Under the pieces are notes generated by a model. It saw only the letters and a program-made list of their open reading frames with translations, was not told where the DNA came from and ran no database searches. 32,000 nucleotides of DNA from Haloferax volcanii DS2 (GTDB lineage: Archaea; Halobacteriota; Halobacteria; Halobacteriales; Haloferacaceae), in assembly GCF_000025685.1 (NCBI RefSeq), contig NC_013968.1, positions 1 to 32,000 on the forward strand. The letters run 5' to 3'. Positions 3,241 through 22,133 of the stretch are shown here, in pieces. Each line of letters opens with the position of its first letter. Within the stretch, counting starts at the first letter, position 1. Made by a program: the position numbers and the translations under genes.

Positions 3241-4596
3241 ATTCTGTGGCCGAGCGGTTGCATTGGCGGTTTCGACGAGAGAATCATGGACGGATCGGCG
3301 GAGAGCCGTCGCTGTCGGCGGCGGCTGCCGCCGACGCGACAGCGTCGCCACTCCCACCGTTGGCTAGCCCGGTCGGGAGTTACCGGTGGAACCGGTCGTC
3401 CGGTGGCCGGTTCGCGGGGACGGCCCGACGCGTCGCGAGGGCCGTCCACGCTGCCCGTCGGATCATGTTGATGAACTCCTTGAATGGCCACTGCCAGAGG
3501 CGACGCCCGCCTCGGCGGGGCGTCGCCACGTACTCCCAGTGCAGATACCGCCACACGTTCTGTAACAGCAAGCTCACCACGACGTACAGCAGCCGTACAA
3601 CCGGATTTTGTGTCGAGGTCGTCGCGATACTTTGTTCAGAGAGTCGATAGCTTGCCTCGATACCGAAGCGTTTCGCGTAGTGGTATCGAGCGTCTCGTGG
3701 TGAGTCGATGAACGGCGCGTCAGCGGCGTAGCCGTGACGCGCCACGCCATGTTCGTCGTACCGTCCGTTCTGGTAGGTACAGTCGATGTAGACGGGAAAC
3801 TCGACGGTCCAGCTGTGACCGTCGAGTCTCGCCGTCAGACTGTGCTGAATCACGCGACTCCACCCTTCCGAGAGTTCTCGCTTGATCGTCCGTCCCCAGC
3901 GGACGATCGGCATGACGTACGCGTGGTTGTGCGCCTGAAGCAGCGTCAAACACTTGCTGTCGTAGAATTCGCGGTCAAGATAGACGGCCTTGACACCGAG
4001 GTCAAGGCCGTCGAGAATACCGAGGAACTCTGCGAGGACACTGCTGGCGGTGTCGCCGTCTTCGAGACGGCGCACCGCCAGCGTGTAGCGTTTGTTCTTC
4101 ACGCGTGCGTACAGCGTCGCGTACGCGTGGAACGCGGTGGTTCCACGCTTCGCTTGTGAGTGATACAGGCCGTCCGTGTCGTCTTCGTCACCATAGTAGG
4201 GCCGCAGGTGGAGGTCTGCGCAGACCTCCACCTGCTGGGGAAGGACGTCGAGAACGTCTTTCTGGAGGAGCATGTTGCCAACCTGTTCGAGCGTTTCTAG
4301 ATCGAATTTAGTGCGGAGATGGTAGAGAACGGAGTTTTCGTGGGGTGCATCTTCGCTTCTCTCACAGAGCGTTGAGACCGAGGTCCCGTCGGCGCAGGCG
4401 CCGACGAGGACCTCGTAGATGTCTTCAGCATCGAGTTCAGCGTTTTCAGCGAGTGAGAGAGCAACTTCCTCGTCAAGAGAGTTGACGAGGAAGTTAAGGA
4501 GCTGGTCCTCGTGGATTTCATCGTCTGCTTGCTGTGGTTGCTTGGACACATCTTCAGCAAGCAGACGTCTCAACTAACAGGCTTTGTGATGTACTG
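3196..4596 (-). mobile_element. ISH3-family-like insertion sequence, copy 1 (1401 bp)
   Basis: Terminal inverted repeats CAGTAC(A/C)TCACAAAGC match at 15 of 16 positions, at 3196-3211 and 4581-4596. There is a single transposase ORF. The transposase protein is identical to that of copy 2 at 15144-16544. The flanking pentamers are AGTAT (3191-3195) and AGAAT (4597-4601). Confidence 0.95.
3380..4573 (-). CDS. DDE transposase (ISH3-family-like, 397 aa)
   Basis: Full-length ORF inside the IS. It occurs three times in the window: two copies are identical and the third is about 96% identical at the protein level. Confidence 0.9.
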   Translation of the reverse strand: MRRLLAEDVSKQPQQADDEIHEDQLLNFLVNSLDEEVALSLAENAELDAEDIYEVLVGACADGTSVSTLCERSEDAPHENSVLYHLRTKFDLETLEQVGNMLLQKDVLDVLPQQVEVCADLHLRPYYGDEDDTDGLYHSQAKRGTTAFHAYATLYARVKNKRYTLAVRRLEDGDTASSVLAEFLGILDGLDLGVKAVYLDREFYDSKCLTLLQAHNHAYVMPIVRWGRTIKRELSEGWSRVIQHSLTARLDGHSWTVEFPVYIDCTYQNGRYDEHGVARHGYAADAPFIDSPRDARYHYAKRFGIEASYRLSEQSIATTSTQNPVVRLLYVVVSLLLQNVWRYLHWEYVATPRRGGRRLWQWPFKEFINMIRRAAWTALATRRAVPANRPPDDRFHR

Positions 4597-4601
4597 AGAA
4601 T

Positions 4602-5341
4602 ACGAGAACGGCCCAGACCGTACACGCGAACTCGGGAGCGTGTTCGAGATGTTCGTCGTGGCGGGCGACCTTCGCGACGACACCTCGGATGACCGCGACG
4701 ACGACGAGCAGACCATCATCGAAGAACTGCGCGAGGACGTCGCGGAGACAGCAGAGTCGAACGACGACGGGGTCGTCTCAGGCGACTCGACGCTCAGTGC
4801 GGAACGCGCCCGCATGGTGCGTGAAGCAGAGCAGACGCGCGAACAGATCCTCGGACTCGACGACGCCATCAGCGCGGTCTACGGCCCCGGTGACTCAAAC
4901 ACGTACACCGCCGTCGTCGACGAGGACAGCACGTTCTCACCGACCGTCGACCGCGTCGTCCACGCGCTCGTTGACGACGGATTTTACCACCTCAATACGC
5001 GCCCGTTCGAGGAAGACAACACGGTCGACATTACCGTTGAGGACGTTCCCGAGGACGCATCCCGTGGTGACGAGTTCGCCGACGGCGCTGTGACGGCGAA
5101 CGCTCGCGGGTGCGACGTCACGACGCGCGACGACCAGGAGGCGAGCGACGACGTGCACCGCTACGTCCGCTACGAAGACCACCGAGGAGAGTGGCATACC
5201 GTCGGCTTCCCATCTGCTACTGACGCTCTCAAATGGGCCGATGAGTGGCCCTACGACGTGGAATACCACAGCGACGAACACCGCCACAACGGGCCGGTCC
5301 ATCGTCCCGAGGACGTGACAGCGACCGACTCGAACACCTAA
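4602..5341 (+). pseudogene. 3' portion (246 codons) of a gene split by IS insertion and then separated by inversion. The 5' portion is at 16875..16545 (-).
   Basis: The reading frame stays open from the IS boundary at 4597 through the annotated ORF 4640..5341. Joining it to 16875..16545 across one copy of the AGAAT duplication gives an uninterrupted 356-codon ORF. Confidence 0.7.
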
Positions 5342-5496: not shown

Positions 5497-5742
5497 TTAC
5501 AGCGTCTGTTCGATCCACTCGCACCACGAGTGGAAGTCCTTCGCGCCGCATTGGTCGGCGATAGACCTGAGAGTCCCAATCTTGAGTTCGTCGTGCTGCG
5601 GCACGTCGACGTTTCGGACTTCTCCCGTCTCAGGATGCTCGTATCGGAGCCGAACGTGGCTTCCATGGCGGGATTTCGGGACGTATCCGTACTTCGTGAG
5701 TGCTTTGGTGACCTCGCGGCCAGAGAACGTCCTCCGTACCAT
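5497..5742 (-). CDS. hicA: HicA-family toxin (mRNA interferase, 81 aa)
   Basis: 'SGREVTKALTKYGYVPKSRHGSHVRLRY..' matches the HicA/YcfA pattern. It lies immediately downstream of a HicB-like gene. Confidence 0.8.
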   Translation of the reverse strand: MVRRTFSGREVTKALTKYGYVPKSRHGSHVRLRYEHPETGEVRNVDVPQHDELKIGTLRSIADQCGAKDFHSWCEWIEQTL

Positions 5743-6006
5743 CTACTGCATAAAGTCGGGCAGTTCGCGGTTCTCGAACTCGTCGGGGTCGAGGCCGAGT
5801 TCTTCGAGGTCATCGTCGGTGATGGGCTCACCACCACCCTCGTGGAGAACGAGAACCTCCGCAAGCTGCGAAAGTGCTTCTGCTCGGGTGTCGCCACCAC
5901 GTGCGAGACCAGTCTCGGTATCGCGGGCGGTGATACTCCCGTCGTCTTCGCGGATGAACTCGACCCCCTCAAAGTCGTCGTCACCGTTGCGAGTCGCACT
6001 TGCCAT
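5743..6006 (-). CDS. hicB: HicB-like antitoxin (87 aa)
   Basis: Small acidic protein directly abutting hicA: its stop codon at 5743-5745 adjoins the hicA ATG at 5742. The N-terminal 'FEGVEFIREDDGSITARDTETGLARGGDTRAEAL' fits a HicB/UPF0150-type fold pattern. Confidence 0.65.
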   Translation of the reverse strand: MASATRNGDDDFEGVEFIREDDGSITARDTETGLARGGDTRAEALSQLAEVLVLHEGGGEPITDDDLEELGLDPDEFENRELPDFMQ

Positions 6007-6137: not shown

Positions 6138-6419
6138 TTACTCGCGGTGGAGGATGATGGTCTTGCGGTCGGTCTGGACGGTCGCGACCTTCCAGTCAGT
6201 CTGCTCAACAGCACCAAACACCGCGTCGATGAGTCTCTGATGGTTCATCGACGGAACCGCACCGTACTCGAAGAACGCTTCATCTGCGTTGTGGAATCCG
6301 AGGAACTCATGGACGGACTTGGAGAGCGAACGTTCGACAGAGTCGACGAGATCAGCTCGAGGGTCGACGGTATTCTGGAGTGCGGTGCCTGCGTCGGAAC
6401 GGCTGTTATCTGCTGCCAT
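6138..6419 (-). CDS. Hypothetical small acidic protein (93 aa), cassette-driven
   Basis: Starts MAADNS at the conserved GTGATGGCAGCAG start cassette. Confidence 0.65.
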   Translation of the reverse strand: MAADNSRSDAGTALQNTVDPRADLVDSVERSLSKSVHEFLGFHNADEAFFEYGAVPSMNHQRLIDAVFGAVEQTDWKVATVQTDRKTIILHRE

Positions 6420-6520
6420 CACGTCTATTACTTAGGCTGCCGTAATATAAAACCAACGCCATTTCGTTAAAACTGCATGGCGTAACTATTATTATGTTGG
6501 GAGTGTATGTAGTAGATGTG
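6420..6520. promoter_or_regulatory. Bidirectional promoter region carrying two copies of the conserved promoter/start cassette
   Basis: A 101-bp spacer lies between divergent ATGs at 6419 (-) and 6521 (+). Each ATG is preceded by ..GTG. The spacer carries A/T-rich TATA-like boxes (GCGTAACTATTATTA; TTTTATATTA) and TTACGCCAT-type half-palindromes. Confidence 0.6.
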
Positions 6521-6970
6521 ATGGCAGCAGAAGCCGACAAGTCAGGTAAGACTATTTCAAACCGAGCCAACGCACCGTTCAACCCTGCTGACGACGCCGC
6601 GGAGATGTTTGTTATCCCTGAGTCATGGGCGGAACACGGCTCGCATCCCGACCTGCATACCGACCTCGGTGAGTCGCGGTTCTTCGCAACGCGCGTCGTT
6701 TCCCACCCGGACCACGACGAGATTTTGGTGCGCTATTACTCGGCTGCGAAGCGGTCAACGGTAACACGCGGCTACGAGGCTGTGGAAGTTGATGGGTCGC
6801 TTGTTCCGAAGGTCGTCGTCGAGAAGGGGCCTAAGTGGTTCCGAGCGTCGATTAGTCACAGTCACCGCCGTGCGCACGACCTAGACTCTCGTGTCGATAC
6901 GAACATCGTCGCAGACAGATACGGTGACGCCGCGGTCCACGGTGTGTTTAGGACCGAGGATGTTCTCTAA
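6521..6970 (+). CDS. Hypothetical protein (149 aa), cassette-driven
   Basis: Starts MAAEAD directly after TGTAGTAGATGTG. The longer tracked ORF (6494) merely reads through the cassette. Confidence 0.65.
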   Translation: MAAEADKSGKTISNRANAPFNPADDAAEMFVIPESWAEHGSHPDLHTDLGESRFFATRVVSHPDHDEILVRYYSAAKRSTVTRGYEAVEVDGSLVPKVVVEKGPKWFRASISHSHRRAHDLDSRVDTNIVADRYGDAAVHGVFRTEDVL

Positions 6971-7090
6971 CTGACGACACGGGCCGATCTTTCTTTCGAC
7001 ACACCTCAGTAGATACTCACCAGTACAGCCCACTACGGGCTGAATTTGTACATATACGTTTTCATATATGCTAACGAACCAATTCGACAA

Positions 7091-7141
7091 TTACGCTATG
7101 CAGTAACTAATAAGCGGATAGGGGTTCATGTTGTAGTTGTG
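7091..7141 (+). promoter_or_regulatory. Conserved promoter/start cassette
   Basis: TTACGCTATGCAGTAA palindrome, then CTAATAAG, TAGGGG and CATGTTGTAGTTGTG, immediately before ATGGCAGTAGAC. Confidence 0.55.
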
Positions 7142-7501
7142 ATGGCAGTAGACGATTGCGGTGCGACCGACGCACAGGACGAAACTGAACTGGAGACACC
7201 AATCAAAGTCTCGTGGACTGGTAAGGCCCGCTCGAAGGCGTGGGGGCATTTTGTCGACTTTGACGCCGAACCCTACACGCTCGCAGCGCGGACGCTGGAA
7301 CGACAGAAAACGAACGTCGTGGTCAACACCGTTGAGGAGGCCGAGGCTTTAGTCGGCGCACTCGACCGCTACGTCGGCGGCGGCACAACTGGTCAGACGT
7401 GGATGAACAAAGCGATGGACAAAGCGTTCCAGCGCGTGCAGGCCGAAGTCCGCGACGCACTCTCCGAAGCCGAGACGCATCCCCGCGGTGATGACAAATG
7501 A
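7142..7501 (+). CDS. Hypothetical acidic protein (119 aa), cassette-driven
   Basis: Starts MAVDD at the cassette ATG. Its stop overlaps the next ATG in an ATGA junction. Confidence 0.65.
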   Translation: MAVDDCGATDAQDETELETPIKVSWTGKARSKAWGHFVDFDAEPYTLAARTLERQKTNVVVNTVEEAEALVGALDRYVGGGTTGQTWMNKAMDKAFQRVQAEVRDALSEAETHPRGDDK

Positions 7502-7623
7502 CGCCGATAGCCCCCAGCAAACGTGGCGGGCCTTGTACGCCCGATGAGCGCGTCTGTGCCCGCTGTACCGAGATTCACTCGCGGGACGATCTCTACTGTT
7601 CGAGGTGCGCTGACGTCCGCTAA
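7498..7623 (+). CDS. Small zinc-ribbon protein (41 aa): MTPIAPSKRGGPCTPDERVCARCTEIHSRDDLYCSRCADVR
   Basis: Hand-translated ORF, below the 60-aa cutoff of the ORF track. It has paired CxxC motifs (CARC and CSRC). Its ATG overlaps the upstream stop (ATGA at 7498-7501), which suggests translational coupling. Confidence 0.5.
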   Translation: MTPIAPSKRGGPCTPDERVCARCTEIHSRDDLYCSRCADVR

Positions 7624-7669
7624 TACTCTCGAATCGAACCGTCTCGACACAATCGAATTTTTTAGATCA

Positions 7670-7720
7670 TTACGCCATCGCGTAATTACTAAGTGGCTGG
7701 CGGTGTATGTTGTAGGTGTG
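7670..7720 (+). promoter_or_regulatory. Conserved promoter/start cassette
   Basis: TTACGCCATCGCGTAA palindrome (7670-7685), then TTACTAAG and GTGTATGTTGTAGGTG, immediately before ATGGCAGAGACG. Confidence 0.55.
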
Positions 7721-9085
7721 ATGGCAGAGACGAGCACCCACACGATTGCACCGAACGAACTCACCACCGACGATATTTCCCAGGGCGACACGGTCACGCT
7801 CAAGTTCCATTCCAACGCGAAGTGTCAAATCCTGTTCCGCGAGTTTACCGTCGATACCATCAAGAGCAACTACGACGGTTCGGTCGATGAGCTACTCGTT
7901 ACCTACTCCGGTGGGACGGGCAAGCAGTACCGACTGATGGCCGAGTGGGAAGGTGCTATCTTCAACAACGATGCTCGCGGTCGCATCTACGAACTCGGCA
8001 TGGTCTACCAGTTCTGTTTCGACGAGGACGACGAGGGGCCACGTTCGGTCGACACAGAGACGACCACGAGCGCGGTCACGCGGTCACCGACCGGCGCGAC
8101 GCTTGCCATCGAAACGATTGGGATTGAGGGAATCTCCGAGAGAGTCGGCACGGCTCACGTCGTCGACCCTGAGACGCACGACCCGTTCTGTGGCAGTCGC
8201 GGAGTCAAGCAGAAAATTCAGACGGACCATCGCGAACTCTTGGAGGTCGATGCGCTCGCTGACGAACTCAACGTCTGCTCGAATTGCCAGCGCTCCGCGT
8301 TCGCGGGGGATGACTACATTAGTCCCGACGACCTGTTCCGACGTGCCCGCGACTGGACCAACGACGACTTTCGAGGCGACTGGTTCGAGGTCAAGATGGC
8401 GAACGGTGACGTTCGCACGGCCCGACTTCGACACGGGACGAACGACAGCAACGCCGAACACCACCATCTGACGTTCGTGATCGACGGCACGCCCATCCAG
8501 AACTGGATAGTAACCGACACCGACGAACTGAAAGTGACCATCCACGAGTGCAATGCTTACGCTGTCGAAAACCCGGTCTACGGTCCAACACGACGGTTCC
8601 GTGACGCGAAGCGGCAGGTCGTCGACGTGCATCCTATCGACGACGTCGACGATAACAATGACCAGGAGCAGAAGGCCGGCGACGACTCCGCCTCAGAAGT
8701 CCATCTCATGACTGACGGCGGGACGACAACACGTCAGACAGCTCTCGACAAGACCAATGAGTCGCCGTTCCCGGTGAAGATTGAGTGGCGCAAGGCGATT
8801 CGGAAGCGGTTCGAGGACTACCTGTTCGACCGTTGGGCCGCTGACGCTATCGACGATGCAACCTACCTCGCGGTGGATGAATACAAGACGCTCGTCGACG
8901 TGAGCGGCCGTGAGGTCGCCACAGAACTACGCGATGAACTCTCGCGAGCGCTGACGTGCGATGAGTTTGAGATTGGCAAAGGGACTGAACTGCGCTCGAT
9001 AACTCGGGTGCGTGGCGAACTCAACGATGCGCTCGATGACAGCAAGGGCCCGTCACGCAAACGACTGATAACAGGCGAACTTTAG
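7721..9085 (+). CDS. Hypothetical protein (454 aa), cassette-driven
   Basis: Starts MAETSTH at the cassette ATG. Long ORF with acidic composition. It contains a 'CSNCQRS' cysteine pair. I recognised no family. Confidence 0.7.
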   Translation: MAETSTHTIAPNELTTDDISQGDTVTLKFHSNAKCQILFREFTVDTIKSNYDGSVDELLVTYSGGTGKQYRLMAEWEGAIFNNDARGRIYELGMVYQFCFDEDDEGPRSVDTETTTSAVTRSPTGATLAIETIGIEGISERVGTAHVVDPETHDPFCGSRGVKQKIQTDHRELLEVDALADELNVCSNCQRSAFAGDDYISPDDLFRRARDWTNDDFRGDWFEVKMANGDVRTARLRHGTNDSNAEHHHLTFVIDGTPIQNWIVTDTDELKVTIHECNAYAVENPVYGPTRRFRDAKRQVVDVHPIDDVDDNNDQEQKAGDDSASEVHLMTDGGTTTRQTALDKTNESPFPVKIEWRKAIRKRFEDYLFDRWAADAIDDATYLAVDEYKTLVDVSGREVATELRDELSRALTCDEFEIGKGTELRSITRVRGELNDALDDSKGPSRKRLITGEL

Positions 9086-9295
9086 CAGAGTCGTAGAGTA
9101 CGGCTTCGGTCGACAGACGGCCATCCAGCAACCTGAAACGTCTAGATGGCTCTGTTGAATCCCTCAGGCGCTGATAGTTTGCTGAGGCCGTGCTGAATAC
9201 AGGGCGCAAGTCGGTCAAAGTGGTTTGGTGAATTGAACACGGTCAGACGACTGTGCGAGACAAGTATTTTACCACCGCACTCACAATGTACACAC

Positions 9296-9616
9296 ATGAG
9301 TTCCGAATCGGAGAAGAAGCGAGTGCAGTTCCGAGCACCGAGAGGGCTGGTGGATCGGGCTGACACCCTTGCAGCGGTGTTCGAGACAGACCGGACGGAC
9401 ATTCTCATCTCAGCCCTCCGCGAGTATCTTCGGGACGCAGCGCACTCTGACGAAGTGAAGCAGGAGGTCGCAGAAGCGTACTACGACGACGCCATTACCT
9501 TCGAGGAATTAAAGTCTCTCGTCGGTCACGAGGAGGCCGCAAATTTTCGTCTCCTGAAACAGCAGTTGAGCGAGGCATTCGTTGACGACGTGGCAGAAGA
9601 GTTGGCCGACACATAG
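9296..9616 (+). CDS. Ribbon-helix-helix (CopG-like) antitoxin, 106 aa
   Basis: 'KKRVQFRAPRGLVDRADTLAAVFETDRTDILISALREYL' has strand-helix-helix RHH architecture. The stop is followed immediately by the PIN gene ATG at 9617. Confidence 0.7.
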   Translation: MSSESEKKRVQFRAPRGLVDRADTLAAVFETDRTDILISALREYLRDAAHSDEVKQEVAEAYYDDAITFEELKSLVGHEEAANFRLLKQQLSEAFVDDVAEELADT

Positions 9617-9784
9617 ATGGTGCGCATCGTCGCTGATACGTCTGCCCTCGTTAGTTTGGGAACCGTAGCAGACGCCACGACAAACCCACTCGATTTGCTT
9701 CTTGAGTCACACGAACTCCTGCTCCCCAAGCAAGTTCTCGAAGAATTGGCTGAAACAGCATCTTACGACGATGCCTCTGGAGAG
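9617..9784 (+). pseudogene. PIN-domain (VapC-like) toxin gene, 5' part, interrupted by an IS
   Basis: 'MVRIVADTSALVSLG..' is a typical PIN N-terminal strand with the acidic residue. The frame runs into the IS at 9785. Confidence 0.8.
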
Positions 9785-11179
9785 CATTGGTGTTCGGTTA
9801 AGCACTGGATCGCCTCCTGAAGGCCTCAGCTACTCGTTCGTTGAGTAAGAGCCGCGATTTCTCTGGTTGGCGGGCGTCACGAAACAGCAGTTCCGACAGG
9901 TTCGGCGGTGGATGGCCGAACGACTGGGCCAGATCTTCGAGCATGAGCTGGGCGAGAGACCGGAAGGTCTTCGCCCAGCGTTCTCGCGGAAACACTGTCT
10001 CTGGGAACAGCTCCTGAAACACCCCGAGCAAGGCTCTGCTGACCGTCAGCGTCAGCAGAGCCGCCACCACTAACAGCTCCACGATCGCTGGATCACTCGT
10101 CTGGAATTTCTCCAGCCCATACAGCGACTTCAGTTCCCGGAACACCAACTCCACTTCCCACCGCAACCCGTACAGCGCCCCGACCTGCCTTGGAGTGAAC
10201 TCATCGGGCAGATTCGTCACGTACAGGTGGTAGTCGTCGGTGTCCTCGTTGCGGACACCGACGACGCGAAACTCCATCGAATCCGTTGATTCCTTCCCAG
10301 CGTATGCCCGCCGTTTGAACTCGATCTCTACCGTTACGTCGATGATCTCCCGACTGAGATCTTCCAGAACGTCCCGAAGACGACGCTCTGGCAAGGAAAT
10401 GGCGCGCCCGCGCCATTTCCGTCGCTCTCCAACGATCAACGGATTCGCGTTCGACTTCAGCCGACTCAGGAAGAACCCGCCGTTCTCCTCGATCAACGCG
10501 AAGCGGCGGAAACTGTAGAAGCCCAGATCGAACAGTAACAGCCGGCCTCGTAGCCAACTCCCGGTGCGGAGTTGGCTGCTCTCGTGGGTGCGTTCATCGG
10601 TGAGCTGGAACTGCTCGATCGTCTGCTTGGTCGCGTTCTGCACGAGGTGGAGTTTCGCGCCGGATTGACCCGAGTGAGTGGCTGGAAACGAATCGAGGAG
10701 CCGATGCAACCTGAACACGGTTGCATCGGCGATCAGTACGTCTCGAAACAGCTCGAACTGTGGCGCGATCGTGTGAGGAACCGCGACCTCCTCGAGAGCG
10801 TGCTCGAGGAGGTCGTTCAACAGTGCTGCGAGGGCCGGCGTGAACCGATCGTAGAAGCTTGAGCGGGCAACGGTCTGGTTGGTTGCTGCGGAGTACGCCC
10901 GTTGAAAGCCGGCGATAGTTCGGGCTTCGCCGTCGACGGCGAAGCCCATGATGAGCGTCCAGACGAGCATCGTGATGTCGATTTTCCGGTCACGCTGGAC
11001 GACATCGCGCTCGCGCGCGATGTCTTCGATTAGCTCGGTGGGAAACAGGGAAGTCAACCGTCGTCGTATGAGATCCGGGGAGAGTTGGTTTAGCACATTC
11101 TCTCCCCACGCGGTCTACAACGATAGCTTCGTCACTAGAGCGCCGTCTGTCGGTTTCTCCGCTTAACCGAACACGGATG
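9785..11179 (-). mobile_element. IS4-family (ISH8-like) insertion sequence, 1395 bp
   Basis: The ends are CATTGGTGTTCGGTTAAGC and, in reverse complement, CATCCGTGTTCGGTTAAGC. A perfect 10-bp direct repeat CTCTGGAGAG lies at 9775-9784 and 11180-11189. There is one 432-aa transposase ORF. Confidence 0.9.
9798..11096 (-). CDS. IS4-family DDE transposase (432 aa)
   Basis: Full-length ORF within the IR-bounded element. The N-terminal 'MLNQLSPDLIRRRLTSLFP' and the overall layout resemble haloarchaeal IS4/ISH8-type transposases. Confidence 0.85.
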   Translation of the reverse strand: MLNQLSPDLIRRRLTSLFPTELIEDIARERDVVQRDRKIDITMLVWTLIMGFAVDGEARTIAGFQRAYSAATNQTVARSSFYDRFTPALAALLNDLLEHALEEVAVPHTIAPQFELFRDVLIADATVFRLHRLLDSFPATHSGQSGAKLHLVQNATKQTIEQFQLTDERTHESSQLRTGSWLRGRLLLFDLGFYSFRRFALIEENGGFFLSRLKSNANPLIVGERRKWRGRAISLPERRLRDVLEDLSREIIDVTVEIEFKRRAYAGKESTDSMEFRVVGVRNEDTDDYHLYVTNLPDEFTPRQVGALYGLRWEVELVFRELKSLYGLEKFQTSDPAIVELLVVAALLTLTVSRALLGVFQELFPETVFPRERWAKTFRSLAQLMLEDLAQSFGHPPPNLSELLFRDARQPEKSRLLLNERVAEAFRRRSSA

Positions 11180-11189
11180 CTCTGGAGAG

Positions 11190-11546
11190 GCAGCACAAGC
11201 TGTGCTTGACCGTAAGAACGCGTTCGATGTCCGTCCTGTCGAATTGGACGAAACGTTTCCACTGGACGATGGCGAGAATGCGGCAGTCACGTTGGCGAAC
11301 GAAGTGGACGCGAGCCAACTCCTCTGCGACGAGTTCAACCGACTCGCACTGGTCCATGCATCACTCGTTGACACTCGTCTCGTGACGACGCCAATCCTAC
11401 TCACTGCCCTCGTGCGGAACGACGTGCTCTCTCCCGATTCTGCGGAGCAGTCACTCGAGAAGATGAGCGACGCCCGGAGTTGGTCTGCAAATTCTTACGT
11501 CGCACGCGCAAAAGCAACACTACAACAGCAACGAGAGGGCAATTGA
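11190..11546 (+). pseudogene. PIN-domain toxin gene, 3' part
   Basis: Removing the IS and one repeat copy joins ..YDDASGE to AAQAVLDRKN.. in frame. This part contains 'ENAAVTLA', 'LCDEFN' and 'LVTTP' acidic positions consistent with a PIN domain. Confidence 0.8.
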
Positions 11547-11677
11547 CCCCCTGTCCGATTTCAGGTAGCTCATCTCGACCGAACTGAACAGAGGGCGCAA
11601 GTCGATTGGAATCGTCGTCCAGAGCCACTTGAGCCAATTCATTCGAGACAATGTGGCTGTCTATTACTGAGGCACAT

Positions 11678-12256
11678 TCATCGGGTGTCAGTTGCTGGTT
11701 GGTGGTACAGCACCCAGAGAACCGGGATACCAGCAATCGTCCCGAGCAGAAGCAAGGCAGGGGTAGGAATTGGTGGGAGGACACTGTCTACCGATTCGAA
11801 CACCACGTAGAACAGACTCAGTAGTTGGCCGGTCAGTAAAACAGCAAGTGGATATCGCGATTCTTGTTGGTGTTCCCAGTGTCTTCCGGCGACAGTGAGG
11901 CCACTTCCGACGAAAACCCATATGCCAGTGATAATCATTCGAAACCCCTGAGAAACGTCAGCGCGCCATGGCTCGAACACAGCGATGCCACCGATGGCAG
12001 TACAGAGACCAATGACGAGAAGGATTTTTGCAGGTAAAGTCGCCGTCCGCTTGGCACCCGTCTCGTGTCCGTACACCCGCACGAGACCCAGCAGTAGTAA
12101 CACACCGCTGAGGATGAGTGCAAGACCGATTGCGAGTCGTTCAGGTGGGCTGTCCCCAATTTGAGTCACGGCAACCACTGAAATGAGCCCACCTGCAGCT
12201 CCGAATACAGTCAATAAGAGGGCGCTACTGAAGCGGCGAGCCATGATATCCATCAA
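11678..12256 (-). CDS. Polytopic membrane protein (192 aa, about 6 hydrophobic helices), function unknown
   Basis: Repeated 20-residue hydrophobic segments run throughout the ORF. Confidence 0.65.
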   Translation of the reverse strand: MMDIMARRFSSALLLTVFGAAGGLISVVAVTQIGDSPPERLAIGLALILSGVLLLLGLVRVYGHETGAKRTATLPAKILLVIGLCTAIGGIAVFEPWRADVSQGFRMIITGIWVFVGSGLTVAGRHWEHQQESRYPLAVLLTGQLLSLFYVVFESVDSVLPPIPTPALLLLGTIAGIPVLWVLYHQPATDTR

Positions 12257-12608
12257 TCGTGAATGTGTAAATTCTTTGGGTCAATCCCGAATGAGTTCTC
12301 TGCTGAACTCATCCTCTATATTCAGCACGCTGGTTCTGTCTGGTTCGGAGGGTTTCAACAGAGCCGTTGCGGCCACGAGATGACGCACGGCGACGAGGAT
12401 GACGACCATCAGGTGTGTATCGACTGCTATGTCGCCGGATGCGACGGCATCACCAAGCGCTGCGACCACGTCATCCTGACGACGCTCGGTGAGTTCTAAC
12501 CGAGCGCTTGGACACCTCTTTTTCGACCCCACTATTTCCAGTGAAGTAGTACACCAGATACGCTCACATATACGCTCGTGTCTGTCGCACACACCCTCAT
12601 CTTTTTGT

Positions 12609-12627
12609 GTATATGATTCCATATATG
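12609..12627. repeat. 19-mer GTATATGATTCCATATATG, left arm of inverted repeats flanking the par operon
   Basis: Its exact reverse complement lies at 14064-14082. It overlaps the parA promoter and start region. Confidence 0.8.
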
Positions 12628-12636
12628 AATCTGTAT

Positions 12637-13536
12637 ATGCCCAAACAGAATACAGCGAACAGGGCGCTCCGAGCGGCCCTATTCATGGACAAAGGAGGAG
12701 TCACAAAAACCACCAGCACAGCACACCTCGGGGAAGCGCTCGCCCGAGAGTACGGGCTTAACGTCCTACTCATCGATCTCGCAGGAAAGCAGGGCGACCT
12801 CTCTAAGCAGTTCGGCATCCACGATGAGGTTCGTGCCGCCGAAGACGATGCGTGGCCGAATATCTCGACTGTGTTCGCTGAAGAATGGTCGACTATCGCC
12901 GAGAAGGTCCCCGATGCTGTCGAGGACATGATTTGGGAAACTGACGAAAACGTCGACCTCATCCCCGCCCACGAGGGACTGGACAGCGTCGACGACGACC
13001 TCGCGAGCGTCAACGTCGAGGACCGCTACACGCGCCTTGACGAGTTCCTGACGAACTACGTCGACCCTCTCGGCTACGACGTTGTCCTGCTCGACCTCCC
13101 CGGATTGACCAACAATGTTACGCTGAATGGACTGTTCGCGACGGGCCGCGTCATCGCCCCGCTCACGATGGGCGAGTTCGAGGAGCGACAGCTCGATCAA
13201 CTCGTCGCAGACATTGACGAGATTGTCGCTGGTTTCGACGTTGACCTCGAACTGGCGATGGTCCTCCCGAGTATGTACGACAAGCGTGCGAACGTCGACA
13301 CCGAAATGCTCGCCCGACTCCGCGAGCAGTATCCCGACCGTATCGCCCCGAGTCCCATTACCAGCTCACAGGGCGTTCCGAACGCACAAGCCGAAGGCCG
13401 AACCGTCTTCGCCGTCCCGAACGATGAACTCCTCGCGACGGCCAAACGAGTGAAAGACGCCTACACCGACGCTGCGACGGCACTTCTCCAGCGCGTCGAC
13501 GGCGAGACAGCGACGGCCTCCACGGAGACTAACTAA
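12637..13536 (+). CDS. parA: ParA/Soj-family partition ATPase
   Basis: Deviant Walker A 'MDKGGVTKTTSTAHLG' and 'VVLLDLPG' Walker B-like motif. The ATG at 12637 is preferred over the upstream GTG at 12607, which reads through the repeat. Confidence 0.85.
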   Translation: MPKQNTANRALRAALFMDKGGVTKTTSTAHLGEALAREYGLNVLLIDLAGKQGDLSKQFGIHDEVRAAEDDAWPNISTVFAEEWSTIAEKVPDAVEDMIWETDENVDLIPAHEGLDSVDDDLASVNVEDRYTRLDEFLTNYVDPLGYDVVLLDLPGLTNNVTLNGLFATGRVIAPLTMGEFEERQLDQLVADIDEIVAGFDVDLELAMVLPSMYDKRANVDTEMLARLREQYPDRIAPSPITSSQGVPNAQAEGRTVFAVPNDELLATAKRVKDAYTDAATALLQRVDGETATASTETN

Positions 13537-13538
13537 CC

Positions 13539-13925
13539 ATGTCCGACGACGCCGACCTCGAAGAACTCAAAGCACAGACTCAGAAAGGTAGTCGCGTCTC
13601 AGCACAGACCAAGCAGGACGATGGCGACCTCACCGACGCGCTCGTCGACGCGCTCAAGGCCGTCGAAAACGGGGACGTCCACCCGAACGTCTCTGTTCGT
13701 GACGCTCACACCGCTGCACTTCTGCACGCGCTCGAAAATAACCCCGAAGCGATGCACGATACCGTCGACTCACTCCGCGACTACCTAGGCGGTAACGCTG
13801 ACGGAGAGGTCGACAAGAGCGTTCTTATCCGCCTGCTCCTGCGTGCCGGTCTACGCGCCGGTGCGCCCGACACACGCGAATCCCTCGCTGACGCCATCGC
13901 TGAACGCGCCAGTAATGAGATATGA
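13539..13925 (+). CDS. Small acidic protein downstream of parA (128 aa), possible partition adaptor or centromere-binding partner
   Basis: Tightly linked to parA by a 2-nt gap. I recognised no motif; the role is inferred from position only. Confidence 0.6.
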   Translation: MSDDADLEELKAQTQKGSRVSAQTKQDDGDLTDALVDALKAVENGDVHPNVSVRDAHTAALLHALENNPEAMHDTVDSLRDYLGGNADGEVDKSVLIRLLLRAGLRAGAPDTRESLADAIAERASNEI

Positions 13926-14063
13926 AATCGCGCGACTGGTACTCTGCGAATTGAACTGCTAATCTGTTTTCGGCTCTGTTCGGTAGTCGAAGTTAGGACG
14001 GCCTGGAGCTGTTCGAGTAGCGTCGCAGTCATCTCTCAAGACGGCAGTCCGCTCTTGATTGAG

Positions 14064-14082
14064 CATATATGGAATCATATAC
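14064..14082. repeat. 19-mer CATATATGGAATCATATAC, right arm of the par-flanking inverted repeat
   Basis: Exact reverse complement of 12609-12627. Confidence 0.8.
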
Positions 14083-14581
14083 GCCTGTAATTCCGGTTTC
14101 AGAGGGGGGGTTTCCAATGCATTACCCCGAGGGTTTCTGTCCTAAGATACCCCTCCAGATTCACCGAGGAAAGTCGGTCCTTCACCAGAGGGTGATTCTA
14201 AGATTCAAAATTCTCGGGGAGAGCGAAAATTACTCAGAAAAGATACCGTTTTTGGAAGCTCGTTGTCGGCGAGAGACAACGAGGATTAGTAAAATATCGG
14301 CCCGTCGCCGGATTTTGACGATGAATCCTATGCCGCTATACCGAATCCCGGGGGAAACGTCACCACAGTTTCGGCGTTTGGATTCCGTTGCGTGGCTTAT
14401 TTTCACACTGTTTGAATTTGAATAGGCTCTTGTCTTGCGGTTTTCGAATCTATAGTGGTGAGAAAGCTAGGAAAAATTTTCTGAGTGACATATAATCAGA
14501 ATCGACAGGCTTCTCCTATTTCATTATTATAATGCTTGAACAGAAGACACGCAACACTTCCATCCTCCGAGATTGTGGGTG

Positions 14582-14834
14582 TTTCTGGCCGATGCGTTCG
14601 GATATCGGACTGTCTTCTCTTGATTAGGTGTGAACGGTCGGGTCGACTACACCGAGCGAAACCTCATCGAAGTGGTTTCACACGTTCAAAATGAGAGTCG
14701 ACCGTTTCCACAACTCGTGGGTGGGCAGTCGGCTGAGCGTCCGCCAGTGGCATGCAGTGTTTATCCATTACTATAATTTTCAGCGACCGCATCAATCGCT
14801 CGACGGAAGAACGCCAGCTCAGGAGGTTAACTAG
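14582..14834 (+). pseudogene. IS6-family transposase gene remnant (3' end only, with an in-frame stop and a frameshift)
   Basis: Hand translation gives 'FLADAFGYRTVFS*LGVNGRVDYTERNLIE', then a +1 shift, then 'WFHTFKMRVDRFHNSWVGSRLSVRQWHAVFIHYYNFQRPHQSLDGRTPAQEVN*'. The second part matches the C-terminal signature of IS6-type DDE transposases. Confidence 0.7.
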
Positions 14835-15069
14835 ACAGTTCCTGTGGTCTGCATCAATTATATCCTCCAAGTTTTTGGGACGGTAGCAAAAGATTGACAC
14901 CTAGCGATGACGTATATATTTTCCATGTACGCGCAGACAATTGGCCCAAATCCTGGTGGACTTCCAAATTCAGAACTAGAATTAATTGTAGTGGTAGTCG
15001 CTATAATCGTACTAGTCGATCTGATTTACATTTTATATTCAAAGAAAAAGAAGAACAGTTGAAAGAGGC

Positions 15070-15138
15070 TTACTCAGGGTCGATTGTTACTTTACGTTTA
15101 TTGTGTTTCGTAATGTCGTAGTCACAAGTTCGATAAGC
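15070..15138 (-). pseudogene. Displaced native 3' end (22 codons plus stop) of the peptidase-like gene at 2344
   Basis: Joining 3195 to the reverse complement of 15138..15070 continues the frame as ..KTKY-AYRTCDYDITKHNKRKVTIDPE-stop. The GC content is low like the parent gene. Confidence 0.65.
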
Positions 15139-15143
15139 ATACT

Positions 15144-16544
15144 CAGTACATCACAAAGCCTGTTAGTTGAGACGTCTGCTTGCTGAAGATGTGTCCAAGC
15201 AACCACAGCAAGCAGACGATGAAATCCACGAGGACCAGCTCCTTAACTTCCTCGTCAACTCTCTTGACGAGGAAGTTGCTCTCTCACTCGCTGAAAACGC
15301 TGAACTCGATGCTGAAGACATCTACGAGGTCCTCGTCGGCGCCTGCGCCGACGGGACCTCGGTCTCAACGCTCTGTGAGAGAAGCGAAGATGCACCCCAC
15401 GAAAACTCCGTTCTCTACCATCTCCGCACTAAATTCGATCTAGAAACGCTCGAACAGGTTGGCAACATGCTCCTCCAGAAAGACGTTCTCGACGTCCTTC
15501 CCCAGCAGGTGGAGGTCTGCGCAGACCTCCACCTGCGGCCCTACTATGGTGACGAAGACGACACGGACGGCCTGTATCACTCACAAGCGAAGCGTGGAAC
15601 CACCGCGTTCCACGCGTACGCGACGCTGTACGCACGCGTGAAGAACAAACGCTACACGCTGGCGGTGCGCCGTCTCGAAGACGGCGACACCGCCAGCAGT
15701 GTCCTCGCAGAGTTCCTCGGTATTCTCGACGGCCTTGACCTCGGTGTCAAGGCCGTCTATCTTGACCGCGAATTCTACGACAGCAAGTGTTTGACGCTGC
15801 TTCAGGCGCACAACCACGCGTACGTCATGCCGATCGTCCGCTGGGGACGGACGATCAAGCGAGAACTCTCGGAAGGGTGGAGTCGCGTGATTCAGCACAG
15901 TCTGACGGCGAGACTCGACGGTCACAGCTGGACCGTCGAGTTTCCCGTCTACATCGACTGTACCTACCAGAACGGACGGTACGACGAACATGGCGTGGCG
16001 CGTCACGGCTACGCCGCTGACGCGCCGTTCATCGACTCACCACGAGACGCTCGATACCACTACGCGAAACGCTTCGGTATCGAGGCAAGCTATCGACTCT
16101 CTGAACAAAGTATCGCGACGACCTCGACACAAAATCCGGTTGTACGGCTGCTGTACGTCGTGGTGAGCTTGCTGTTACAGAACGTGTGGCGGTATCTGCA
16201 CTGGGAGTACGTGGCGACGCCCCGCCGAGGCGGGCGTCGCCTCTGGCAGTGGCCATTCAAGGAGTTCATCAACATGATCCGACGGGCAGCGTGGACGGCC
16301 CTCGCGACGCGTCGGGCCGTCCCCGCGAACCGGCCACCGGACGACCGGTTCCACCGGTAACTCCCGACCGGGCTAGCCAACGGTGGGAGTGGCGACGCTG
16401 TCGCGTCGGCGGCAGCCGCCGCCGACAGCGACGGCTCTCCGCCGATCCGTCCATGATTCTCTCGTCGAAACCGCCAATGCAACCGCTCGGCCACAGAATT
16501 CAGGCTTCAGAGACAGCTAGGCGAGGATGCTTTGTGAGGTACTG
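15144..16544 (+). mobile_element. ISH3-family-like insertion sequence, copy 2 (1401 bp)
   Basis: Same inverted repeats as copy 1. The flanking pentamers are ATACT (15139-15143) and ATTCT (16545-16549). Confidence 0.95.
15167..16360 (+). CDS. DDE transposase (ISH3-family-like, 397 aa)
   Basis: Protein identical to that of 3380..4573. Confidence 0.9.
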   Translation: MRRLLAEDVSKQPQQADDEIHEDQLLNFLVNSLDEEVALSLAENAELDAEDIYEVLVGACADGTSVSTLCERSEDAPHENSVLYHLRTKFDLETLEQVGNMLLQKDVLDVLPQQVEVCADLHLRPYYGDEDDTDGLYHSQAKRGTTAFHAYATLYARVKNKRYTLAVRRLEDGDTASSVLAEFLGILDGLDLGVKAVYLDREFYDSKCLTLLQAHNHAYVMPIVRWGRTIKRELSEGWSRVIQHSLTARLDGHSWTVEFPVYIDCTYQNGRYDEHGVARHGYAADAPFIDSPRDARYHYAKRFGIEASYRLSEQSIATTSTQNPVVRLLYVVVSLLLQNVWRYLHWEYVATPRRGGRRLWQWPFKEFINMIRRAAWTALATRRAVPANRPPDDRFHR

Positions 16545-16875
16545 ATTCTGCTTTAACTTCGACCTTCGGGACGCCATCGTTGAAGGTGTGTGAGACGGTG
16601 TGGTCTTTTGTCTCCGCGGTCGTGTCGTAGGCGAGCGTCATCATCGGGTTGTCGTTATCGTGCCACTTTGCCTCGCCAGCGGGAGTGTAGTCGACGTTCG
16701 TGATTTTACCCGATTCGTAGCGTTCGAGTCCCTGCCCGTTGAGGTACATGACGTGGAACTCTGCGCCGTTGAGGTCGACGTCACCCTCGAATAGCTCGCG
16801 GGCATCCTCGTCGTCCGCGAGTCGGTGGACGTTCTCCGCATCTGCGTCAACATTGGCGTTGATGTCTACTGCCAT
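16545..16875 (-). pseudogene. 5' portion (110 codons) of the split cassette-driven gene; continues at 4602..5341 (+)
   Basis: Starts MAVDINANV at a cassette ATG (16875). In the present arrangement the frame runs into the IS and ends 12 codons later at 16507. Confidence 0.7.
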
Positions 16876-16927
16876 CACATCTACAACATGGATTCCCACA
16901 CTTATAAAAATTACGCCATAACGTAAC
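16876..16927 (-). promoter_or_regulatory. Conserved promoter/start cassette
   Basis: On the minus strand: GTTACGTTATGGCGTAA palindrome, then TTTTTATAAG, TGTGGGAA and CCATGTTGTAGATGTG, immediately before ATGGCAGTAGAC. Confidence 0.55.
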
Positions 16928-17017
16928 AGAGTTGGGGACAGGTGGTGTTCAAAATGGATGTCGCTCGTCGGCAGGTGCCAAAATAAAATGGGTTCAGCGC
17001 CCGACACTCGGGCGCTC

Positions 17018-17512
17018 TTACTCGTCGGCGGCGATTGGGGTACGAACGACCTTCGTATCGCTATCAACGTCGTCACGACGCTTTTGAGAGTCTAATTCGG
17101 CTTTGCGGTTGCCCAGTTCCTGCGACTCAGATATATCCTCACGTGCGACTGCCCGGACGTTTCCGCTATCAAATGCTACGATAGGGCGGTAGTCGTCGTA
17201 GCCGCTGATTGCGTGGGCGGTGACGGTCCCGGTTAACGCGCCATCTAGCGGGGTATCGACTTCGACACGTGTTCCGTTTGGGAAGTCGACCGTCACGGCG
17301 TCCTCGACGGCGTTGATGGGTGCAAGTTCGGATTCCGGTCGGCCTGCCCGCTCGCGCGTTGCACCGCCAACTCCAACGGAGTAGGTGAACTCAAAGGGCA
17401 CGTCAACACCGGCATCGGTAACAAACCGAACCTTGCCGACTGCAATTTCACCGTCGTGAATCAGAGCTACGAGGTCGCCCGGAGCAAACCGTGCGACGCT
17501 GTCGGTGCTCAT
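17018..17512 (-). CDS. Hypothetical protein (164 aa)
   Basis: ATG at 17512 overlaps the upstream stop in an ATGA junction. Third gene of a minus-strand operon headed by a cassette. Confidence 0.6.
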   Translation of the reverse strand: MSTDSVARFAPGDLVALIHDGEIAVGKVRFVTDAGVDVPFEFTYSVGVGGATRERAGRPESELAPINAVEDAVTVDFPNGTRVEVDTPLDGALTGTVTAHAISGYDDYRPIVAFDSGNVRAVAREDISESQELGNRKAELDSQKRRDDVDSDTKVVRTPIAADE

Positions 17513-17709
17513 CGGCCACCCCACTCGAAGTATGCAAGCAGTTCCGCGGCGTCGACGACCGTGAGACGCGCGACGTGTTCGTGCGTGAACTTCTGTTGGT
17601 AGACGGCAATGACCTGCGAGGTCGTTTGCTCGCAGTCATCGCGTTCCCATCGCGAGAGGGGTTTCGCTGAGCGCTCGGTCTTAGTCCACTCGCCGGGATG
17701 TCCGTTCAA
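17509..17709 (-). CDS. Hypothetical protein (66 aa)
   Basis: Sits between two coupled ORFs on the same strand, with a consistent acidic composition. Confidence 0.5.
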   Translation of the reverse strand: MNGHPGEWTKTERSAKPLSRWERDDCEQTTSQVIAVYQQKFTHEHVARLTVVDAAELLAYFEWGGR

Positions 17710-17715
17710 TTCACC

Positions 17716-17973
17716 TCAGTCCTCGGAAACCATTGCGTTGAGGTCGTCGTAGTCGAGCGTAACGAGGTGAGAGCCGTCGTCAAGTTCCTGCGCGACTGTC
17801 ACCGCACCGCCGGTCATCGTGGCGAGCAGACGCGAATCATTGTCCCACGGGTCAACGACCTCGTAGCGGTCAAAGTGCCGGTAGCGGCCAGTCGCGGCTT
17901 CGACATCCACAACGTCGTCGATGCTTAGTTCAGGCTGGTACTTCGGCGCAAGTTCGTGATTCTCTGCTGCCAT
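17716..17973 (-). CDS. Hypothetical small acidic protein (85 aa), cassette-driven
   Basis: Starts MAAENHE at GTGATGGCAGCAGAG. Confidence 0.65.
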   Translation of the reverse strand: MAAENHELAPKYQPELSIDDVVDVEAATGRYRHFDRYEVVDPWDNDSRLLATMTGGAVTVAQELDDGSHLVTLDYDDLNAMVSED

Positions 17974-18075
17974 CACAGATACTACTACACACGCAAGTAA
18001 TTTAATAATTACGCTATATGGTTATGTCTCTATAGGGTAATTATTAAGTAAGTGGGGCTTCACGTAGTAGATGTG
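17974..18075. promoter_or_regulatory. Bidirectional promoter region with two cassette copies
   Basis: A 102-bp spacer lies between divergent ATGs at 17973 (-) and 18076 (+). It carries TAATTATTAA and GGTAATTATTAAG boxes, TTACGCTAT, and GTGGGG..CGTAGTAGATGTG. Confidence 0.6.
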
Positions 18076-18426
18076 ATGGCAGTAGACAGTCAACTCGAAA
18101 CTCGACTGGAAAGCGCGACTGGCATGATGAAAGTCGAATACACCGCTCCCGGTATGGCTACGGTCTACTCTTACCAGAGCGATAGCGAATACCCCGTTGA
18201 CCTTCTCAACTGGGTCTGCCCGTGTCAGGACCCCTGCGATGACTGCCGCCACCTGCTCCGGGCCGCGATGGAACTTGACCCCGACGAGATGAGCGTGCTT
18301 CTCACGAACGACTCTAACGAACTCAACCCCGGCGATGAGGACGGCGAACTCCAGACTGACGGTGGCGAGTGCGACTGCCCATGTTGTACGAGCGACATAG
18401 GCTTCCCCTGTTTCGACGCTTACTGA
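18076..18426 (+). CDS. SWIM-type zinc-finger protein (116 aa), cassette-driven
   Basis: 'WVCPCQDPCDDCRHLLRA' matches the CxC..CxH SWIM pattern. A second Cys cluster 'CDCPCCTSDIGFPCF' lies at the C-terminus. Confidence 0.7.
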   Translation: MAVDSQLETRLESATGMMKVEYTAPGMATVYSYQSDSEYPVDLLNWVCPCQDPCDDCRHLLRAAMELDPDEMSVLLTNDSNELNPGDEDGELQTDGGECDCPCCTSDIGFPCFDAY

Positions 18427-18642
18427 CGACGCCCCAAATCGGTCGCTACTCCTTTTTTCGGCGCACTTGCCGCGTATATACGAATCCATATACGTCTGGG
18501 ATTCCGTGACATGGCCGTTCTCACCCAAATTAGAGGTCTAAGAGCATCTCTGAATCACTATCCTGCGTGGTAATGTCTGAGAAACCTGTATCAAAATCAC
18601 TGCATCCTCTTCCTGTTCTATTCTACCGCTAGGTCAAAGGAG

Positions 18643-21541: not shown

Positions 21542-22072
21542 ATGACAGAATCAAACGACGTCCCCAAAGATGGGGACGTAACCGAAGATGAGACGGCCCC
21601 GCTATACGCGCGGGTGGCCGAGCGTGCGGACAAAAAGTTTGAACAATTCGAGAGAAGAGTCGCAGAACGCCTCTCGGTTCGACAGGCCAAGGCGCTGACG
21701 ACCATAGTCGGAATTACAGCACTCGGGTCGACGAGTGCAGCAGCACAGTCGCTGGGCGAGTTTGGCGATGCCATGTGCGGAACTGGCCTCGGTCAGCTCA
21801 TCGGCTTCGTGTTCATTGGGGCCGCCATGTACCTATTCATCAAGGCGGTGATGAAGGGCATGACCGCGATGGAGAAGATGAACTCGACCAAGCAGGGCCA
21901 GCAGCACGAGGGTAAACAGCAACTCGTCGACGCTGGAACGACCTTCTCCGGTGTGTTCATTCCGGCACTCGCCGCAGGGGTCACGGAAATTATGGGCATG
22001 AACACGGTATCCTGCCTTGCGCCGTCCTCGTGGAGTGTCGTTGGAACGGTCATCGTCGGTGTCCCCTTCTAG
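21542..22072 (+). CDS. VirB2/TrbC-like pilin candidate (176 aa)
   Basis: A long hydrophilic leader is followed by the hydrophobic segment 'ALTTIVGITALGSTSAAAQS', ending in an A-x-A-like site. Two hydrophobic helices then flank a basic/polar loop 'KGMTAMEKMNSTKQGQQHEGKQQ'. Confidence 0.55.
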   Translation: MTESNDVPKDGDVTEDETAPLYARVAERADKKFEQFERRVAERLSVRQAKALTTIVGITALGSTSAAAQSLGEFGDAMCGTGLGQLIGFVFIGAAMYLFIKAVMKGMTAMEKMNSTKQGQQHEGKQQLVDAGTTFSGVFIPALAAGVTEIMGMNTVSCLAPSSWSVVGTVIVGVPF

Positions 22073-22133
22073 GGGGCAACGATGAGGACCAATAGTATCG
22101 CTGTTCGGCTGACTCAATCTTTAATTTCAATAG

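Follow-up and report, generated by a model that had tools for sequence, protein, structure and literature searches.

A promoter and translation-start module repeated in front of unrelated ORFan genes of Haloferax volcanii plasmid pHV1 as the probable signature of a plasmid regulon

The analysis of the first 32,000 nucleotides of the 85,092-bp plasmid pHV1 of Haloferax volcanii DS2 (the window) revealed a module of 65 bp placed repeatedly in front of genes whose products are unrelated to each other. Seven full copies of the module, one divergent copy (1621) and one orphan core devoid of a promoter (30427) were counted. Judging from the sequence, the module is probably an element-specific promoter/operator which defines a plasmid regulon, i.e., a self-contained haloarchaeal promoter fused to the translation start and, less certainly, served by one factor. 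The proteins encoded at 101–1327, 1621–2058, 7721–9085 and 18076–18426 were exactly Orc10/HVO_C0001, HVO_C0002, HVO_C0011 and HVO_C0026A, respectively, and orc10 is placed at 101–1327 of pHV1 in the pHV1 passages of the genome paper.

The string GTGATGGCAG was found in eight exact copies in the window (6422−, 6518+, 7139+, 7718+, 16878−, 17976−, 18073+ and 30430−), with a chance expectation of 0, and GTGATGGCAGHAG in seven exact copies against 0.00 expected from shuffled sequences. The corresponding gene starts, with ATG codons at 6419(−), 6521(+), 7142(+), 7721(+), 16875(−), 17973(−), 18076(+) and 30427(−), were all located where the initial annotation of this DNA had put them. The copy at 7721 does not have the AAG ending allowed for in the reported string: it reads GTGATGGCAGAGA, apparently the consensus minus one base, and this copy appears to carry a 1-nt deletion, which would place the HVO_C0011 open reading frame (ORF) in another frame. 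The copy at 30427, described as decayed, is decayed only upstream of about −5, the GTGATGGCAG string itself being exact there. The divergent version postulated before 1621(+) is a diverged copy with a core 2 nt shorter, containing ATGACAGCAGA. The copies and the genes they precede are as follows (IS, insertion sequence).

Divergent cassette, 1570–1631 (+), in front of HVO_C0002 (145 aa, 1621–2058); elements CGTTAC, TATTTTATA, TGGTGGGG, ATGAGTAGACA and ATGACAGCAGA
Cassette D, 6409–6470 (−), spanning −51 to +11, in front of a 93-aa ORFan (6138–6419, −); palindrome and TATA box deviant (TTAACGAAATGGCGTT, TTTTATAT)
Cassette C, 6470–6531 (+), in front of a 149-aa ORFan (6521–6970); distal half-site degenerate (AAAC)
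Cassette B, 7091–7152 (+), in front of HVO_C0010 (119 aa, 7142–7501)
Cassette A, 7670–7731 (+), in front of HVO_C0011 (454 aa, 7721–9085); core ATGGCAGAGAC, the consensus minus one base
Cassette E, 16865–16926 (−), in front of an IS-interrupted gene (gene E)
Cassette F, 17963–18024 (−), in front of a three-ORF unit (17716–17973, 17509–17709 and 17018–17524, all −)
Cassette G, 18025–18086 (+), in front of HVO_C0026A (116 aa, with a SWIM-type CxC..CxH motif, 18076–18426), followed by a T6 run
Orphan core (GTGATGGCAGCAGAC), 30414–30435 (−), only about −5 to +14 of the module, with an 11-codon ORF

Ungapped alignment on the ATG placed the seven full copies in one common register, counted here from the A of the ATG. 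The module begins with a 16-bp dyad TWAC-N3-AT-N3-GTAA at −51 to −36 (TWAC at −51 to −48, AT at −44/−43 and GTAA at −39 to −36), followed by the TATA box TAnTAAG at −34 to −28, which has (G)CGTAA directly 5' in all full copies. Further downstream are the G-run TGG(GG) at about −23 to −19, a conserved AT at −14/−13, GTWGTAGNTGTG at −12 to −1 and ATGGCAGYAGA at +1 to +11. A stretch of 25 bp, GTWGTAGNTGTG ATG GCA GYA GA, is nearly invariant. The recurrent upstream order of palindrome, A/T box, G-run and ATGTWGTAGNTGTG seen in the initial annotation was thus recovered in a fixed register without gaps. Cassettes C and D, as well as F and G, are arranged back to back with 101 and 102 bp between the ATG codons, respectively, and these near-identical distances, already noticed before, result from the abutting of their palindromes.

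The palindrome in its perfect-ended form TTACNNNWWNNNGTAA occurred three times in the window (0.06 expected) and only at the cassettes; no match to the dyad was found elsewhere in the sequence scanned. TWAC-N3-AT-N3-GTAA is present in most copies and overlaps core promoter elements in several promoters. Conservation within the dyad covers TWAC/GTAA at the ends and AT in the centre. Its inner positions show no covariation and can pair in only about half of the copies, a pattern consistent with the binding site of a dimeric protein rather than with a hairpin. The idea that the core represents a second, degenerate copy of the dyad (common pattern AYGYWRTAG) was rejected, as in the window this pattern matched cores only and not palindromes. 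Repeat searches returned the 58–63-nt module alone, and a longer repeated mobile element around the copies, the circumstance named in the initial annotation as fatal to a control region, was not found.

The A/T box proved to be a TATA box lying at a distance that fits a transcript start 3–5 nt before the ATG, and the cassette as a whole has the anatomy of a haloarchaeal promoter. In H. volcanii, 72% of the protein-coding transcripts are leaderless, with 0–5 nt ahead of the start codon. In the rows of Table S2 of Babski 2016 used here, the centre of the TATA box lies at −27 to −29 from the transcription start, with TTTAW at about −30 to −26, and the haloarchaeal consensus for the TFB recognition element (BRE) and TATA box is CGAAA/TTWT (PMC4983044). 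A crude position weight matrix (PWM) made from 23 rows of that table placed the transcription start site (TSS) at −5 to −3 in four cassettes, with the TATA centre at −31 to −33. Transcripts are predicted to start 3–5 nt before the ATG and to be leaderless-class mRNAs with the common 5' end GUGAUGGCAGYAGA, the invariant TG at −4/−3 being a possible pyrimidine–purine start. On the Haloferax geometry the AT at −14/−13 falls at the −10/−11 "WW" element, and CGTAA, i.e., the proximal half of the dyad, occupies the BRE position and looks like a BRE. For one of the seven cassette genes, Laass et al. (PMC6490895) reported a transcript, now annotated as HVO_C0026A, in both RNA-seq and differential RNA-seq (dRNA-seq) data.

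The module has the same order and spacing of elements as the standard haloarchaeal leaderless promoter (BRE CGAAA, TATA TTWT near −28, WW at −10/−11; Brenneis 2007, Babski 2016), given a TSS 3–5 nt before the ATG, and, like it, contains no Shine–Dalgarno sequence. It differs from such a promoter in a dyad that extends 12 bp past the BRE, in the 25-bp invariant block over the start and in its reuse before 7–11 unrelated genes. The seven predicted mRNA 5' ends gave no Rfam match at the gathering score and folded differently (z-scores −1.0 to +1.5), with no common or unusually stable fold; the first 60 nt at the 5' end are unstructured.

Divergence, expressed as pairwise differences per site in eight orthologous sets across four elements, amounted to 0.29 in both the dyad and the spacer, 0.15 in the TATA box and 0.38 in the sequence far upstream. 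It was 0.05 at −14 to −1 and 0.013 at +1 to +11, with 0.13 at downstream third codon positions, so the core (−14 to +11) diverges 3–10 times less than synonymous sites. The palindrome singled out by the initial annotation is the less constrained part of the module, and the strongest constraint, by a wide margin, lies around the transcript start and the start codon. Codon 2 was always GCA, and codon 3 was GCA or GTA wherever it encoded Ala or Val; in pHV1 GCA accounts for 19.5% of the codons for Ala and GTA for 4% of those for Val. Both the slow change of the core relative to synonymous sites and the fixation of these rare codons argue that selection acts on the nucleotides and not on the peptide, the M-A-(A/V)-(D/E) N-terminus being a by-product.

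The mutual unrelatedness of the downstream proteins was borne out by all-against-all BLASTP and profile–profile comparison of 12 cargo families, and what is conserved is the control region with the first codons, as initially proposed, not a gene family. The exceptions were the orthologous pair E/J (with an indel) and the first 13 residues common to families B and H. The cargo consists of ORFans, with one to three ORFs per unit, and Pfam, PHROG, NCBIfam and PDB sequence searches with the cargo proteins gave no significant match. A word-indexed search for homologues of HVO_C0011 returned its own cluster only, and a full HMMER scan only a handful of remote relatives. AlphaFold (AF2) models of two cargo proteins, built on shallow alignments, reached a predicted local distance difference test (pLDDT) score of 36 and 46, too low for the models to be of use.

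Most units end in oligo-T, the usual archaeal terminator (T5–T6 within 60 nt of the stop codon in four units, a hairpin followed by T4AT4 in another), which makes them look like independent transcription units. The T6 run located 60 nt 5' of cassette A was also considered as a second promoter and is more simply explained as the terminator of the preceding unit. In unit B, a zinc-finger ORF of 41 aa (7498–7623, +) overlaps the end of HVO_C0010, and a T6 run comes after it. The 41-aa product has paired Cys motifs, C-x7-C-x2-C ... C-x2-C, typical of small haloarchaeal zinc-finger proteins. The start codon of this ORF and the TGA stop of HVO_C0010 share bases (ATGA), an arrangement suggestive of translational coupling of both ORFs within the cassette unit. 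The first gene of unit F contains an in-frame TGA in pHV1 (17709–17716, −) where pHGLR3, a related plasmid of Hfx. gibbonsii, has a Cys codon; it is split into 85 and 66 aa in pHV1 versus a single ORF of 154 aa in pHGLR3 and the other relatives, and may be a pseudogene in H. volcanii DS2, the laboratory model strain.

The module family is very narrow, comprising three Haloferax elements and one metagenome contig, and the relatives of pHV1 carry 7–11 copies each, placed before further ORFans. Plasmid pHGLR3, which can be lost spontaneously from its host, has nine copies and is 97–98% identical to pHV1 in the cassette regions; its full copies lie in one island of about 7 kb. An integrated island in CP048738, another Haloferax chromosome, has seven copies and the orphan. 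In the metagenome contig NODE_379 (34.9 kb), 11 copies were found within 10 kb, several of them before new ORFans. No other carrier of multiple copies was detected in 185,579 species-representative genomes, a metagenome collection, IMG/VR, PLSDB and phage genomes. The genome scan with GTAGNTGTGATGGCAGYAGA gave eight single matches in unrelated bacteria and one thaumarchaeon, which is the chance level, and multiple matches in the metagenome scan were confined to NODE_379. The scans of viral collections gave only single chance-level matches, and BLAST with the cassettes against plasmids and phages returned pHGLR3 only. Elements of other genera with a T4CP-like (type IV coupling protein) gene of 34–60% identity were inspected as possible carriers and rejected, since no repeated start motif lay within 10 kb of their T4CP genes.

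In pHV1 the cassettes are spread over 12 kb (6.4–18 kb) because an IS-mediated inversion split one island. The 1.4-kb IS is present in two identical inverted copies (3186–4601 and 15139–16554, 100%) and a third copy at 30709–31983, and gene E is divided into residues 1–110 at 16875–16546(−) and residues 110–349 at 4598–5338(+). As read from this arrangement, the IS entered gene E, and recombination between the two identical inverted copies inverted the intervening segment.

Two remote homologues of HVO_C0011 on short hypersaline-metagenome contigs are preceded by a different palindrome, ACAAGTACAGCTTGT, at −52 to −38 and again at −16 to −2, with TTTAAG at −33 to −28, GGTGG and ATGGC at the start (L188:377–431 and L189:153–207). 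These analogues have the geometry of the pHV1 module, and identical palindromes flanking the TATA box are the layout that a repressor would use; these sequences, only two and related to each other, support the interpretation of the dyad and the start region as protein-binding sites. In one of the two homologues, an A-like N-terminal domain is fused to a B-like domain.

On the preferred reading, each module would be a self-contained promoter giving a leaderless-class mRNA, as suggested by sequence geometry and one published transcript. The transcript start would nearly coincide with the start codon, so that the constraints of initiation would reach codons 2–4 and produce the shared M-A-(A/V)-(D/E) N-terminus. 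The divergence pattern shows that the modules are kept alike by selection on the BRE-overlapping dyad and, above all, on the initiation region. With lower confidence, one sequence-specific factor would bind the dyad and possibly the core, most likely as an element-encoded repressor because the dyad overlaps the BRE, and the whole cargo island would be turned on and off as a single regulon. Further units would come about when the module, together with its first codons, was copied onto new ORFs.

Several observations weigh against this reading. The dyad diverges as fast as the spacer, its distal half is degenerate in three to four families, and no dyad symmetry was found in the core. The basal machinery together with leaderless translation could suffice to account for the constraint. 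A single regulator for all copies is only inferred: the neighbouring proteins, like the cargo, showed no significant match to Pfam, NCBIfam or PHROG families, and no DNA-binding protein could be assigned among them by these searches. Weak leads for the regulator are a weak winged helix-turn-helix (wHTH) and coiled-coil candidate next to the orphan core of pHGLR3 (61259–61813), the F protein, present in all relatives, with a non-significant PDB match to a phage repressor (E = 0.18), and the SWIM-motif protein of unit G.

The modules might also have no dedicated regulator. A strong constitutive promoter with an efficient leaderless start could have been copied repeatedly and conserved for the host TBP, TFB and RNA polymerase and for ribosome loading on a 5'-terminal AUG. 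This is possible, though rather unlikely, and a good part of the conservation of the core may be due to it, since the greatest constraint falls on the initiation region and start codon and not on the dyad. The unstructured first 60 nt of the predicted mRNAs, the lack of a regulator in the family searches and the detection of HVO_C0026A mRNA in published transcriptome data (PMC6490895) agree with it as well. However, the ordinary H. volcanii promoters in the Babski 2016 rows have no such 25-bp invariant block, the TWAC/AT/GTAA symmetry plays no part in basal initiation, and both metagenome analogues have a palindrome on each side of the TATA box.

Neither the distal half-site nor the invariant core is accounted for if the distinctive BRE/TATA pair merely selects one host TFB/TBP paralogue, i.e., if the control is directed by general factors and not by a classical repressor or activator. 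In haloarchaea both TFB and TBP occur as multiple paralogues, regulation directed by BRE/TATA has reportedly been documented for hsp5, and CGTAA and TAnTAAG are positionally invariant in the module. No TFB or TBP gene is present in the annotation of pHGLR3, and this explanation is regarded as improbable.

The orphan core bears on a further explanation, in which the invariant core acts at the RNA level. Upstream of it, at 30427(−), nothing promoter-like was detected with the PWM from 23 published promoters. It adjoins a perfect hairpin AAAGGGGCCTAGGCCCCTTT (region 30404–30466), and both lie on the strand opposite to the T4CP-like gene, within about 150 nt 3' of its stop codon, the core about 100 nt from the stop. 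The orphan is kept at the same place in pHGLR3 (L002:15751−) and CP048738 (L067:14027−); its sequence is identical in all three elements, against a difference of about 15% in the flanks as estimated by eye. The 25-nt core could then be a post-transcriptional 5' tag, GUGAUGGCAGYAGA, on all cargo mRNAs, read by a protein or an RNA. One candidate is the antisense of the promoter-less orphan, provided that the transfer-like operon (21542–30316) carries it near its 3' end. Retention in the orphan of only the part predicted to be transcribed, together with constraint extending to +11, speaks for such a tag, which, if real, would couple the expression of the cargo to that of the transfer genes (VirB4/T4CP). 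It is considered quite improbable, as an antisense transcript over the orphan is hypothetical, conservation also covers −14 to −4, predicted to be outside the transcript, and no Rfam family or common fold was found.

The initial annotation had also proposed cassette-wise shuffling of genes at the conserved start. Shuffling as such is plausible, since the order of units differs among relatives and 13 N-terminal residues are shared by two families, but it is not site-specific: the shared-to-unique junctions vary by pair (+7, +11, about +18 and about +40), and the spacers are mosaic between non-orthologous copies. These variable junctions and mosaic spacers indicate that new units seem to arise when the module is copied along with differing numbers of codons, through duplication or recombination and not site-specific exchange. 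There is accordingly only a very remote prospect that the repeats serve for recombination in a site-specific cassette system, integron-like or otherwise, or represent a small mobile element (miniature inverted-repeat transposable element, MITE) in several copies. In favour of it are the differing unit order, a weak tyrosine-recombinase match on pHGLR3 and orphan homology that begins inside the core, at about −5, as expected after a breakpoint at that position. An integron-like array was rejected because the repeats are 5' promoters with no 3' repeat and the only recombinase-like gene, on pHGLR3, is far away with a Pfam match below the family cutoff, and a MITE because the 58–63-nt repeat always ends in frame at the ATG of a gene and has neither terminal inverted repeats nor target site duplications.

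Reuse of one promoter/operator before unrelated genes of a mobile element is already known. The plasmid-wide regulons of IncP RK2 (KorA/KorB) and IncW R388 have repeated palindromic operators in many promoters, and the pHV1 module resembles them in one short dyad recurring in promoters of unrelated operons of one plasmid and overlapping core elements. It differs in that its promoter is archaeal, its regulator is only putative, conservation runs through the start codon and the cargo comprises ORFans alone instead of backbone functions. Element-specific consensus promoters used by an element-encoded polymerase or factor are represented by the −17 to +6 promoters of T7, the late TAAATG of poxviruses and the upstream conserved sequence (UCS) of yeast killer plasmids. 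Like the module, they have an extended consensus that covers the initiation site (in poxviruses also the ATG itself) and stands before many unrelated genes; in pHV1, in contrast, such a polymerase or factor is not evident, and the host TBP/TFB are presumably used.

SSV1 F55 and SNJ2 Orf4 are reportedly lysogeny regulators of archaeal viruses with repeated operators at several promoters. The likeness is that several promoters within one mobile element carry operators overlapping TATA/BRE and TSS, and the metagenome analogue similarly has two identical palindromes flanking TATA; the module differs by its putative regulator and the absence of virus genes, and it was not found in the viral collection. 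Phage morons and integron cassettes, too, are self-contained and small, each with promoter, ORF and terminator; their functions are unrelated and their order differs among relatives, whereas in pHV1 one promoter is common to all units and there is neither an attC-type 3' site nor an adjacent integrase. New features of the module are the archaeal BRE/TATA promoter, the peak of conservation over the transcript and translation start reaching into codons, and the very narrow family. The motif string was not found in papers mentioning Haloferax, the module is not mentioned in the pHV1 passages of the genome paper, and the locus tags of a few cassette genes occur in the searchable literature, in incidental mentions only.

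Plasmid pHV1 is part of the principal genetic model among haloarchaea, and about a dozen ORFan genes are marked by the module as probable members of a single regulon, a starting point for tracing their function and regulator. The module illustrates how, in an organism with mostly leaderless mRNAs, promoter constraints can extend into codons and force one N-terminus on different proteins. It is also, with its 65 bp, a possible portable expression element in Haloferax.

The remaining genes of the window include those for Orc1/Cdc6 and ParA, IS elements and the transfer-like operon with TraC/VirB4-like and T4CP-like proteins. This operon (21542–30316, +) encodes proteins of 176 aa, 425 aa (TrbL_3-like), 984 aa (TraC/VirB4-like) and 1305 aa (T4CP-like), its promoter is unrelated to the cassette, and its homologues (33–60% identity) were found in elements of Haloarcula, Halorubrum, Halococcus, Halogranum and Natronococcus. 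A toxin–antitoxin pair, HicB-like (87 aa) and HicA (81 aa), is encoded at 5497–6006 (−) directly 3' of cassette unit D, with no cassette in front of the pair itself, and has the same placement in pHGLR3 and CP048738.

A second palindrome, GCATATAYG-N5-CRTATATGC, unrelated to the cassette dyad, was found in the window at 7049–7070, 12607–12640 and 18474–18497 and also at L001:29070, 32374 and 37672, L002:18258 and L018:6050 and 8621. A cluster of these sites lies immediately 5' of and across the start of the ParA gene and others lie between cassette units; the palindrome could be a candidate centromere-like site or a binding site of a partition protein.

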